64,000 bases of DNA from a virus: IMG/VR virus record IMGVR_UViG_2802429064_000003. One strand, 5' to 3'. The first letter of the stretch is position 1. Every line of letters starts with the position of its first letter. The position numbers were made by a program, and so were the translations under genes. This document shows positions 38,101 through 38,882 of the stretch, one piece after another. Under the pieces are notes generated by a model. The model saw nothing but the letters and a program-made list of their open reading frames with translations. It had not been told where the DNA came from and searched no databases.

Positions 38101-38205
38101 GAATTCCATGCGGGCAAACTTTCTCCAGATCGCGTCAAATTACTTGAGTCACTGCCGGGATGGAGCTGGAGTCCCCGCGTGAAGAAGAAAGTGAAAGCCG
38201 CATGA
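35101..38205 (+). CDS. DEAH-box superfamily-2 helicase with a C-terminal array of 8 tandem HA domains
   Basis: GTG in a GTGA overlap with the upstream gene. Walker A ACGTGKTL, motif II VVCDEAHRTAG, a helicase C-terminal domain, then eight 65-aa repeats each ending LESLPGWSWDV. Confidence 0.75.
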   Translation: MKGHVKATTVPAPKLRVRPPNPLRQHQIDALTAVQTDVARQQLIMACGTGKTLTGQHAVAKLLGEQPGTVLVLVPTLSLLEQTFQAWAAYAPFGFDSIAVCSKLTPAEKRSVGTEDDTDTGQLALAATTEPAELADFLAGQERTTRVVFGTYQSLDTVIAAHADHGAEPWSVVVCDEAHRTAGAKAKPFARALHDEFVPARRRLFLTATPRVHTVSEKESGSEKSTLLASMDDETLYGKQVYTLSVAEAIEKNILSQYRVAVIGVEDAELQAAVRTLETVKVAGSDLSLDHVASIVALSKAAQQYGLQAIIAFFNSIKSSKSFRDAFNTVHESRVGEHLAEGVAEHIDGAMKLEKRRAALTRLAQNRDNGFYLVSNARCLSEGIDVPVLDAVFFGEPRSSQIEVVQCVGRAIRKNPRHDNPALIVIGVRIGAGEDIEAAVDESQFKKIRQVIAALSDHDPRIAEAARVLARSGGSNPDDSVHEKTDWAKDLLALEVPEALLHNGFGLRMLDVRNRDWEKRFAQVSQHAQRTGNVIFANTDPCGSWINKQRMKFREGRLPVERSRRLESLPGWSWDVLTDQWEMRFVEVSRRAQRVGTVAFPHGSPQSAWVTNQRKAFSDGRLPVERSRRLESLPGWSWDVLTDQWEMRFAEASQRAQHVGNLAVSRNQPLGKWIANQRRRFHTGSLCAERIKRLESLPGWSWDVLTDRWEKMFVEVSRHAHLRGNVTFPSKDPRGTWVTKQRKSFRAGTLSAERIKRLEALAGWSWDVISAQWEKMFVEVSRHAHLRGNVTFPSKDPRQVWVSQQRTTHLRAGTLSLERIKRLESLPGWSWDVISAQWEQRFAEVSRHAHLTGNVTFPSNDPRMLWVYTQRKSFQVNKLSAERIKRLESLPGWSWDVLTDQWEQMFEVIHHHSRLTGRIAFDRRDTRTYWIQVQRQRFRAGTLSPERIKRLEALSGWTWDVLADQWEQSYAEVCRYAERTGNVTFPDRNPLRSWVSRQRREFHAGKLSPDRVKLLESLPGWSWSPRVKKKVKAA
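36649..38169 (+). repeat. Tandem 195-bp coding repeats (8 units, up to about 85 bp identical between units) encoding HA domains
   Basis: For example 36763-36850 is nearly identical to 36958-37045. Read directly from the sequence. Confidence 0.7.
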
Positions 38206-38882
38206 CCGCCCCAGGTACTCAAGGCGGATTCAACCGCTTAGCTGTGCTCGACATCGAGACAACCGGACTGAACGCCAGCAGCGATTCGACGCTCGAGGTC
38301 GGAATCGTCATCGTCGACTCCAAGCTTCGCGAGATTGCGCACCACTGTGTCCTGATCGCATCGGCGGAGAACGTGGCGTGGGCCAAGCTTGCTCTCGAGC
38401 AAGCAGGTAGAGGTGCTCCGATGACTTTCGCGCAGACTATGCACCTGAACAATGAGCTGATCTCCGACTTGTGCTCGCCGATCAACTTCAGGCGATTCCT
38501 TGGGCTCGAGACGTCGACGGTTGTCATCGACTACCAACTCGCTGCTGATCGCCTCTGTGCCTTCCTCGATGAGCAAGGGATCCTCGAACCTGTACCGCTA
38601 GTGGGTAGTTCCGTGCGATCGCTTGATGGGCCATTCCTGGAGCGGTATATGCCGAAGCTGTTCTCTCGCTTCACGCACCGCACGATCGATGCCTCGGCGC
38701 TCACCGAACTCACACGGTTCATTGACCCGCCGGGGTATGAGGCGTTGGCCGCGGCGACACCGGAATCTGGTCATCGTACGGTGGAGGACTGTCGACGCTC
38801 CATCGGGATCATCCAGGCTTTCGCCCGGCGGTACGGAATTGGTTCGCTCCCAGAGCTGGAACAAAACACACCTGTCAGCTGA
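38202..38882 (+). CDS. DEDDh 3-prime to 5-prime exonuclease, oligoribonuclease (Orn)-like
   Basis: ATGA overlap with the helicase stop. LAVLDIETTGLN (exo I), then GHRTVEDCRRSIG (exo III with His) near the C-terminus, and an Orn-like length of 226 aa. Confidence 0.6.
   Translation: MTAPGTQGGFNRLAVLDIETTGLNASSDSTLEVGIVIVDSKLREIAHHCVLIASAENVAWAKLALEQAGRGAPMTFAQTMHLNNELISDLCSPINFRRFLGLETSTVVIDYQLAADRLCAFLDEQGILEPVPLVGSSVRSLDGPFLERYMPKLFSRFTHRTIDASALTELTRFIDPPGYEALAAATPESGHRTVEDCRRSIGIIQAFARRYGIGSLPELEQNTPVS

Follow-up and report, generated by a model that had tools for sequence, protein, structure and literature searches.

Introduction

Enzymes that clear dinucleotides have long been regarded as housekeeping proteins. 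The active site of oligoribonuclease (Orn) comprises the acidic residues D12, E14 and D112 and the general base H158; L18 wedges between the two bases of the substrate, W61 stacks on the 3' base, and Y129, contributed by the partner subunit, likewise stacks on a base (Kim et al., 2019, PMC6613908). Orn requires a 5' phosphate, which is capped by S108, R130, S135 and the hydroxyl of Y129, and this cap limits cleavage to dinucleotides (PMC6613908). In mycobacterial Orn a C-terminal helix, alpha10, stabilises the dimer (PMC9676404), and Orn and its relative REXO2 discriminate little between RNA and DNA dinucleotides (PMC11706625). A 2025 study reported that actinomycete mobile elements carry a dedicated deoxydinucleotidase, the diDNase, the purpose of which is unknown (Mortensen et al., 2025, PMC11706625). 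The diDNases are NrnC-derived DEDDy nucleases specific for deoxydinucleotides that occur sporadically on actinomycete integrative and conjugative elements, on prophages and on one plasmid, in addition to the housekeeping Orn, and their DNA specificity stems from changes in the ExoII motif and from a partner-subunit residue positioned against the 5' nucleotide (PMC11706625). Here we analyse an Orn-like gene at positions 38202..38882 of a 64,000-nucleotide stretch of DNA (IMG/VR virus record IMGVR_UViG_2802429064_000003; the whole stretch is referred to as the window), which is part of a large integrated element. The protein is a divergent member of the Orn/REXO2 branch encoded only on mobile elements, and its main interest is as an Orn-derived counterpart to the NrnC-derived diDNases.

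A divergent member of the Orn/REXO2 branch

The gene is an uninterrupted open reading frame (ORF) of 226 codons followed by a stop codon.

38202..38882, plus strand: Orn-like DEDDh exonuclease gene (translation, family and PDB searches, alignment, AlphaFold2 model)

An alternative upstream ATG at 38160 is the start used by NCBI for the 240-amino-acid version of the protein (P0001). We prefer 38202, because the homologues P0002 and P0003 begin at the equivalent methionine, because the N-terminal 11 residues are variable and conservation sets in only from residue 12 onward, and because the 14 extra codons fall within the helicase reading frame upstream.

The sequence-only reading of the window had proposed an oligoribonuclease-type DEDDh enzyme, and sequence, profile and fold searches bore this out. 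The NCBIfam oligoribonuclease model NF003765 covers residues 11-206 (E 1.4e-18, 67.1 bits), Pfam RNase_T matches the N-terminal ExoI region only (32 bits against a cut-off of 24 bits, and thus above threshold), and the NCBIfam epsilon and PolC models reach no further than residues 12-58, at E 0.007-0.09. A phmmer search of the PDB returned exclusively Orn/REXO2 chains (E 1e-11 to 5e-7). A profile built from 33 family members found the same proteins at 1e-18 to 1e-12; the next matches, to PolC, DnaQ and a Cas-associated DEDDh protein, had an E-value of 3e-5 and spanned about 30 residues (profile positions 6-37) of the ExoI region, so that PolC and DnaQ were weaker than Orn/REXO2 by at least seven orders of magnitude. 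Neither search found NrnC or diDNase chains among the PDB sequence matches. Comparison by hhalign with E. coli Orn (a sequence identical to PDB 7VH4/1YTA) gave a probability of 98.3% over 175 columns. The AlphaFold2 model computed from the family alignment has a beta-beta-beta-alpha core with an RNase H-like fold and a mean predicted local distance difference test score of 92, with residues 212-226 of low confidence, and its best 50 Foldseek matches in the PDB are all Orn/REXO2 (22-26% identity, target-normalised template modelling score 0.72-0.85). Such agreement goes well beyond chance.

Thus, by its residues and its fold the protein is a member of the DEDDh (DnaQ-like) superfamily, and by sequence, profile and fold searches it is closest to Orn/REXO2, as a divergent relative and not an orthodox Orn. 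With Orn/REXO2 (PDB 6N6A, 1YTA, 6N6I, 7WIK) it shares the fold, a similar size and a single domain. With DnaQ/epsilon, the PolC exonuclease domain and RNase T it shares the superfamily and an ExoI match, but only about 30 residues align (E 3e-5 or worse), and those enzymes have open active sites that take long substrates, without a phosphate cap (PMC6613908). The alpha10 helix of mycobacterial Orn is absent from the AlphaFold2 model. A recent duplication of the host orn gene was considered and ruled out, as the protein is 23-24% identical to M. smegmatis Orn and does not have the C-terminal helix of the mycobacterial enzyme.

Conservation of the catalytic, wedge and cap residues

Four motifs carry the residues that correspond to the Orn active site:

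38250..38270, plus strand: ExoI, D17-I-E19-T-T-G-L23, with two catalytic acids and the leucine wedge (Orn D12, E14, L18), invariant in 33 aligned sequences
38604..38627, plus strand: ExoII, G135-S-S137-V-R139-S-L141-D142, with the cap serine (Orn S108) and a catalytic aspartate (Orn D112)
38676..38696, plus strand: cap motif, H159-R160-T-I-D-A-S165, in which Orn Y129 is replaced by His and R130 and S135 are kept
38772..38789, plus strand: ExoIII, H191-R-T-V-E-D196, with the general-base histidine and the fourth acidic residue (Orn H158, D163)

The alignment of 33 sequences shows no variation at the five DEDDh residues (D17, E19, D142, H191 and D196), at L23, S137, R160 and S165 (Orn L18, S108, R130 and S135) or at H81 (Orn H66). 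The ExoIII position is a histidine (H191-x4-D196) and not a tyrosine, and the DEDDy motif is therefore absent. Because the catalytic set, the wedge and three of the four cap residues are conserved, a capped, dinucleotide-sized pocket is the most economical reading of these motifs.

Distribution and selection

A word-indexed search recovered 37 clusters, from Mycobacteroides abscessus (96% identity), Mycolicibacterium, Gordonia and a Tsukamurella plasmid, and when 1.84 billion representatives were searched exhaustively with the profile, only five matches were better than 1e-30, followed by a continuum of 5,682 Orn-like proteins. The family motifs occur at 7 loci among 185,579 species-representative genomes (in Mycobacterium, Mycolicibacterium, Mycolicibacillus and one metagenome-assembled genome labelled Holophagaceae), and the gene is therefore rare and accessory. 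Across 36 family sequences, down to 43% identity, 41 columns are invariant, and comparison with seven homologues gives ratios of nonsynonymous to synonymous substitution rates (dN/dS) of 0.17-0.35, dS being saturated in the distant pairs. The family is under purifying selection. Furthermore, all contexts examined are integrative or conjugative elements or plasmids of Mycobacteriales. The family is thus restricted to mobile elements, unlike Orn itself, which is encoded in the core genome.

For the window, a mobile-element location had been suggested from sequence and was confirmed by a tyrosine integrase gene (60949..62157, minus strand) and by synteny with the 264-kb Tsukamurella plasmid NZ_LR134455, in which genes for a polymerase, an SLT protein, an S1 peptidase, HA proteins, the Orn-like protein, an HA protein, a DEAD helicase and FtsK are shared. 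This kinship is detectable at the protein level only. The M. abscessus chromosome CP062133 contains a near-identical segment; no tRNA gene that could mark an attachment site was found in the window, megablast of positions 33000-42000 against the PLSDB plasmids found nothing, and the element is not described in two papers on the M. abscessus mobilome (PMC9934374, PMC8092301).

The junction with the HA-helicase gene

The Orn-like gene overlaps the end of a helicase gene by four nucleotides:

35101..38205, plus strand: superfamily 2 (SF2) helicase/translocase with ResIII, DEAD and Helicase_C domains and eight HA (PF03457) repeats, GTG start
36757..37817, plus strand: tandem array of 192-nt units within the helicase gene, one HA domain each, 78-82% matches
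38202..38205, plus strand: ATGA start/stop overlap, with the same junction in contigs L006 and L007 and in the divergent L013 and L014

The exonuclease ATG (38202-38204) shares the sequence ATGA with the helicase TGA stop (38203-38205). This junction is kept in an M. abscessus variant that is 71-75% identical, in which the flanking and upstream sequence differs and a purine-rich stretch is clearer. The arrangement would be consistent with translational coupling of the Orn-like gene to the helicase gene. The domains and repeats listed above show that the name HA-helicase, used in the sequence-only reading, is correct. The helicase is 1034 or 1086 amino acids long, homologous contigs calling 1034 amino acids from the GTG at 35101, and this GTG in turn overlaps the stop codon of the preceding HA-only gene as GTGA. 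Within the repeat array the local G+C content falls to 0.565. As the helicase has 714 amino acids in the variant element (L013) compared to 1034 in the close homologue L006, the number of HA repeats differs between elements. Published work on TtrA describes it only as a putative DEAD-box helicase required for linear-plasmid conjugation.

In the Tsukamurella plasmid the Orn-like gene is upstream of the HA gene and the helicase gene, and its stop codon overlaps the next start as ATGA. The overlap with HA genes has thus survived a rearrangement, which suggests that the Orn-like gene is co-expressed with a DNA-translocating motor in this lineage.

Genomic contexts of the relatives

The proposed coupling to the HA-helicase thus has a basis at this locus, in the overlap and the HA domains, but it does not extend to the family, since most members have no helicase nearby. 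An HA-helicase within about 6 kb of the Orn-like gene was found in one metagenomic contig and in M. canariasense. The commonest other context consists of a VirB4-like AAA_10 ATPase, a protein of about 790 amino acids, ParA, often DUF3310, the Orn-like protein and an alpha/beta hydrolase, and continues with excisionase-like helix-turn-helix (HTH) genes and a tyrosine integrase adjoining der/cmk; no helicase is present in this context, which is that of most Mycolicibacterium, Gordonia and Mycobacterium members. Other neighbours are ParAB, Cas9-Cas1-Cas2, and a pair of NTP_transf_2 and HepT genes. Residence on a transmissible element is constant and the partner gene varies. Such varied neighbours argue for an autonomous function with a generic substrate and not for one obligate partner.

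Two of these contexts have features of their own. The gene for family member P0030 (metagenome contigs L011 and L012; 2038..8642) follows a Cas9-Cas1-Cas2 operon at a distance of about 1 kb, with an FtsK-like gene elsewhere on the contig, and the gap between the operon and the exonuclease gene probably holds an array of clustered regularly interspaced short palindromic repeats (CRISPR). DEDDh exonucleases are known as partners in CRISPR adaptation; the proximity here may or may not be coincidental. At three further loci (L018, 7001..9223; L024 and L025, about 5950..8090) the Orn-like gene is followed by an ORF of 331-355 amino acids and one of 132 amino acids. In L018 this pair has NTP_transf_2/Polbeta and HepT-like domains, L024 and L025 being matched by ORF sizes only, and from its domains the pair resembles a toxin-antitoxin system whose nucleotidyltransferase is unusually large.

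Actinophage and plasmid relatives

A tblastn search located members of a wider clade. They occur on 13 large plasmids of Rhodococcus (25-27% identity) and in 50 phage records, nearly all of them from actinophages and chiefly from phages of Gordonia, with 26-32% identity among the matches listed. The phage homologues are annotated as 'DnaQ-like DNA polymerase III subunit' or 'exonuclease', and they carry Orn-type motifs, namely DIETTGL, MHxxxGL, GSS, (Y/H)R-x-x-D-x-S and HRxxxD, with a full cap including HYR; BFVD fold matches agree with this Orn-type character. The best 145 relatives outside the family mostly have the pattern GSS...HFD...(S/H)(Y/H)R, which marks an Orn-like clade distinct from the canonical GNS...QD...HYR. 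Of these 145 sequences, 100 have Tyr and 44 have His at the Tyr129 position, and the Arg139 insertion occurs in only one. The phage proteins thus resemble the family in their motifs, in their residence on mobile elements of Mycobacteriales and in being often near a helicase, but most of them keep Tyr129 and have neither the ExoII insertion nor Arg139, and they are located in phage replication modules by a sliding clamp.

Gordonia phage Jumbo gp55 (L015) and Rhodococcus phage Reynauld gp53 (L016) possess all the wedge and phosphate-cap motifs of Orn (DIETTGL, GSS, HYR..D.S); judged by these motifs, both are probably dinucleases and not proofreading subunits. The same motifs suggest that many annotations of actinophage proteins as 'DnaQ-like DNA polymerase III subunit' need correction to Orn-type dinuclease.

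The gene string and the surrounding element

Five genes form a rightward string that ends with the Orn-like gene; four of them are chained through 4-nt overlaps. The three genes upstream of the helicase gene are:

32537..33370, plus strand: candidate secreted S1-like peptidase, first gene of the string (GDSGAP motif, hydrophobic N-terminus)
33367..33999, plus strand: 210-amino-acid protein with no family match, its GTG overlapping the stop of 32537..33370 as GTGA
34088..35104, plus strand: HA-repeat-only protein with four HA domains, third gene of the operon (ORF list, domain search)

The peptidase candidate has no Pfam match; its syntenic gene in Tsukamurella is annotated as an S1 family peptidase. 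A scan for promoters and terminators across 32-42 kb gave sites no more numerous than in shuffled sequence, and the limits of the operon therefore rest on the gene overlaps. Downstream lie two small ORFs and an FtsK/AAA ATPase gene, all on the minus strand and convergent with the Orn-like gene. Further genes of the element are:

23068..25863: family A DNA polymerase (PolA) with its own 3'-5' exonuclease domain
31512..32339, minus strand: SLT transglycosylase
39382..41442, minus strand: FtsK/SpoIIIE ATPase
50062..51948, minus strand: FtsK/SpoIIIE ATPase
60949..62157, minus strand: tyrosine integrase

Two additional DEDD exonucleases and an RNase H-domain protein are encoded near the integrase (56835..58505, minus strand; 59743..60351, plus strand; 54468..55460, minus strand). 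One of the two exonucleases has 555 amino acids and matches RNase_T and PHROG 192, 'DNA polymerase exonuclease subunit'; the other has 202 amino acids and is RNase_T/DnaQ-like over its full length. Together with the Orn-like protein and the PolA domain, these two exonucleases bring the element to four 3'-5' exonuclease domains.

Proposed function and alternatives

We propose, with a probability of roughly 55%, that the protein is an active, selectively maintained and divergent DEDDh 3'-5' exonuclease of the Orn/REXO2 branch that clears short oligonucleotides for its mobile element. Its motifs make a hydrolase of 5'-phosphorylated dinucleotides the most likely activity. Asp17, Glu19, Asp142 and Asp196 would serve as metal ligands for two-metal hydrolysis with His191 as the general base; the enzyme would act on a very short oligonucleotide, most likely a dinucleotide with a 5' phosphate, with Leu23 wedged between its two bases and Ser137, Arg160 and Ser165 capping the phosphate; and 3'-5' hydrolysis would yield two mononucleotides. 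As in Orn, the enzyme would be expected to work as a homodimer and to be limited to dinucleotides in length. Its role, as suggested by gene context and the diDNase precedent, may be to remove the di- and oligonucleotide end products of the element's DNA and RNA processing during replication, transfer or establishment, which would recycle nucleotides and reduce aberrant (nano-)priming and enzyme inhibition independently of the host Orn. A role in RNA primer processing, which the sequence-only reading had also raised, is possible.

Several observations weigh against this proposal. The score of 67.1 bits lies below the oligoribonuclease equivalog cut-off of NF003765, which is 106 bits. The equivalent of Orn Y129 is His159 in 36 of 36 tabulated family sequences, and ExoII reads GSSVRSLD in place of the Orn GNSIxQD: one residue is inserted, Arg139 is invariant and absent from Orn, and Leu141 stands in place of Gln111. 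There is also a helical insertion of 15-25 residues between the equivalents of Orn Trp61 and His66. From strand 3 to His81 the protein exceeds Orn by about 10 residues, and the model, highly confident in this segment, shows an extended helix and a second, short one. The ExoII changes and this insertion mean that the pocket could take something other than a plain dinucleotide. Moreover, hhalign pairs Orn Trp61 with the non-conserved Phe76, and MAFFT and hhalign both disagree with an equivalence to Trp60; the invariant Trp60 lies 16 residues upstream of Phe76, in the extended helix, and may or may not replace Orn Trp61. Finally, the homologues in Gordonia and Rhodococcus phages sit between a DNA helicase gene and a sliding-clamp gene, a position compatible with a replisome-linked role. 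A dinuclease of the pGpG and pApA type, as first suggested for this gene, nevertheless stays the best guess, because the features that restrict Orn to dinucleotides are mostly kept; it is the orthodox version of the claim that fails, on the sub-cut-off score, the His at the Tyr129 position and the altered ExoII.

The strongest alternative, which we still consider unlikely, is a replisome-associated DNA 3'-5' exonuclease, acting as a proofreader in trans or as a primer or flap trimmer with the helicase and the element polymerase. Besides the position of the phage homologues and their 'DnaQ-like' labels, it draws on a match of the Orn-like protein to PHROG 192, 'DNA polymerase exonuclease subunit' (E 3.8e-12), on the gene overlaps with HA-helicase and HA-protein genes here and in Tsukamurella, and on the presence of the family A polymerase. 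However, similarity to DnaQ and PolC is confined to ExoI whereas that to Orn is full length, the leucine wedge and the cap Arg and two Ser are invariant, and the phage homologues themselves have the full Orn cap. PolA has its own exonuclease domain and the element encodes two better DnaQ matches, so that proofreading is already covered, and most family members have neither a helicase nor a polymerase nearby.

We regard as improbable a second alternative, in which the enzyme interferes with signalling or host defence, either by destroying linear messengers and intermediates such as pGpG, pApA and linear oligoadenylates or by altering cyclic di-GMP (c-di-GMP) and c-di-AMP homeostasis. Orn removes pGpG and so controls c-di-GMP turnover (PMC6613908, PMC9676404). 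Family members are found in the accessory regions of conjugative elements, with a DUF3310 gene adjoining in several loci, one lineage beside Cas9-Cas1-Cas2 and others beside the NTP_transf_2/HepT pair, and a PADLOC model of a Cas-associated DEDDh protein gives a weak N-terminal match (E 4e-6). Yet this match covers the generic ExoI region only, no genes of the cyclic oligonucleotide-based antiphage signalling system (CBASS), of type III CRISPR or for cyclases were seen beside the family members examined, and because neighbours vary between loci no specific defence target is implied. Linear molecules of the pGpG or pApA type are possible substrates, but the gene contexts lend this no specific support. 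DEDD 3'-5' exonucleases require a free 3'-OH, which cyclic messengers lack. Direct cleavage of cyclic oligonucleotide rings was accordingly rejected on mechanistic grounds, and with it the idea that cyclic messengers could be the direct substrates in the CBASS or type III CRISPR role suggested earlier. A literature search for papers on phage or anti-defence Orn found none.

More improbable still is that the protein forms the nuclease arm of a helicase-nuclease module for defence, restriction-like activity or anti-restriction, in which the HA-helicase would translocate and the exonuclease digest the products. The helicase core does match the motor regions of type IIG and type I restriction endonuclease-methyltransferases in PADLOC (E 3.7e-93 and 2.1e-57) and PbeA models, the 4-nt overlap with an HA gene is kept in M. 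abscessus and, with the order reversed, in Tsukamurella, and the HA domain is reported to bind DNA according to the citation of Mills et al. (2013) in PMC12191111. On the other hand, PADLOC made no system-level assignment, its DEDDh and PDC-S48 matches being limited to the generic ExoI region, and the helicase has neither a nuclease nor a methyltransferase domain. The module belongs to a backbone that two distant elements share in synteny (polymerase, SLT, peptidase, FtsK) and not to a variable cargo island, a capped dinuclease pocket is poorly suited to long DNA, and most members have no helicase. We give hardly any credence to a decaying or non-catalytic paralogue kept by hitch-hiking, since the sub-threshold equivalog match and the sporadic occurrence that would favour it are set against 41 invariant columns including all catalytic residues, the dN/dS values and a confident fold prediction, and this conservation excludes pseudogenisation.

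Relation to the element-borne diDNases

Like the diDNases, the family consists of sporadic dinuclease-type genes on actinomycete mobile elements, and it differs from Orn at the same two kinds of position that changed in the diDNases, ExoII and the partner-subunit residue. It belongs to the DEDDh/Orn branch and the diDNases to the DEDDy/NrnC branch, with no detectable direct sequence relationship between them, and the neighbours of diDNases are HTH or HIRAN-HipA genes. DNA specificity has been demonstrated for diDNases; for the present family no sugar preference can be inferred from the kinship with Orn and REXO2, because these enzymes do not distinguish strongly between RNA and DNA dinucleotides. 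By analogy with the diDNase specificity sites, the family's changes at ExoII and at the Tyr129 position make an altered specificity a live possibility.

On this basis we tentatively suggest, as a possibility with the odds against it, that elements and phages of Mycobacteriales recruited Orn separately from the path that led from NrnC to the diDNases, and that His159, Arg139, Leu141 and the insertion retuned the pocket to other dinucleotides. If so, the substrate might be DNA dinucleotides, or 5'-modified or unusual short oligonucleotides arising from conjugative DNA processing or from host defence nucleases, and the family would represent a second, convergent class of element-specific dinucleases with a role in element establishment or counter-defence. 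The Orn-derived lineage would in any case be the second of its kind on conjugative elements, plasmids and, more distantly, phages, with systematic changes at the positions that govern substrate choice. Should its specificity differ from that of the host Orn, it would point to a dinucleotide pool relevant to DNA transfer, replication or immunity, and would provide a tool to manipulate that pool.

Other genes of the window

The two small ORFs downstream are at 38875..39027 (minus strand, 50 amino acids) and 39030..39227 (minus strand, 65 amino acids), the first sharing 8 nt with the 3' end of the Orn-like gene. Gene calls include both in the homologous M. abscessus contigs L006, L008 and L013, and the first only in L007 and L014; the 65-amino-acid ORF has no Pfam match. 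A paralogue of the HA-helicase is also present:

42562..45885, plus strand: second HA-helicase, 1107 amino acids, four HA repeats

This paralogue has a long C-terminal extension with a weak Terminase_5/HTH-like match and no exonuclease partner.

Near the start of the window, a Nampt-like protein with NAPRTase and NAMPT_N domains (10..1635, plus strand) is encoded directly ahead of a NUDIX protein (1632..2285, plus strand); the two genes overlap by 4 nt, and the pair recalls the phage NAD-salvage gene pairs that counter NAD-depleting defences. Two WhiA-like paralogues, each with all three WhiA domains, are encoded at 12957..13910 and 15810..16841 (both minus strand) and adjoin an SF2 ResIII/Helicase_C helicase gene (16838..18811, minus strand); WhiA is usually a single-copy chromosomal regulator of sporulation and cell division.

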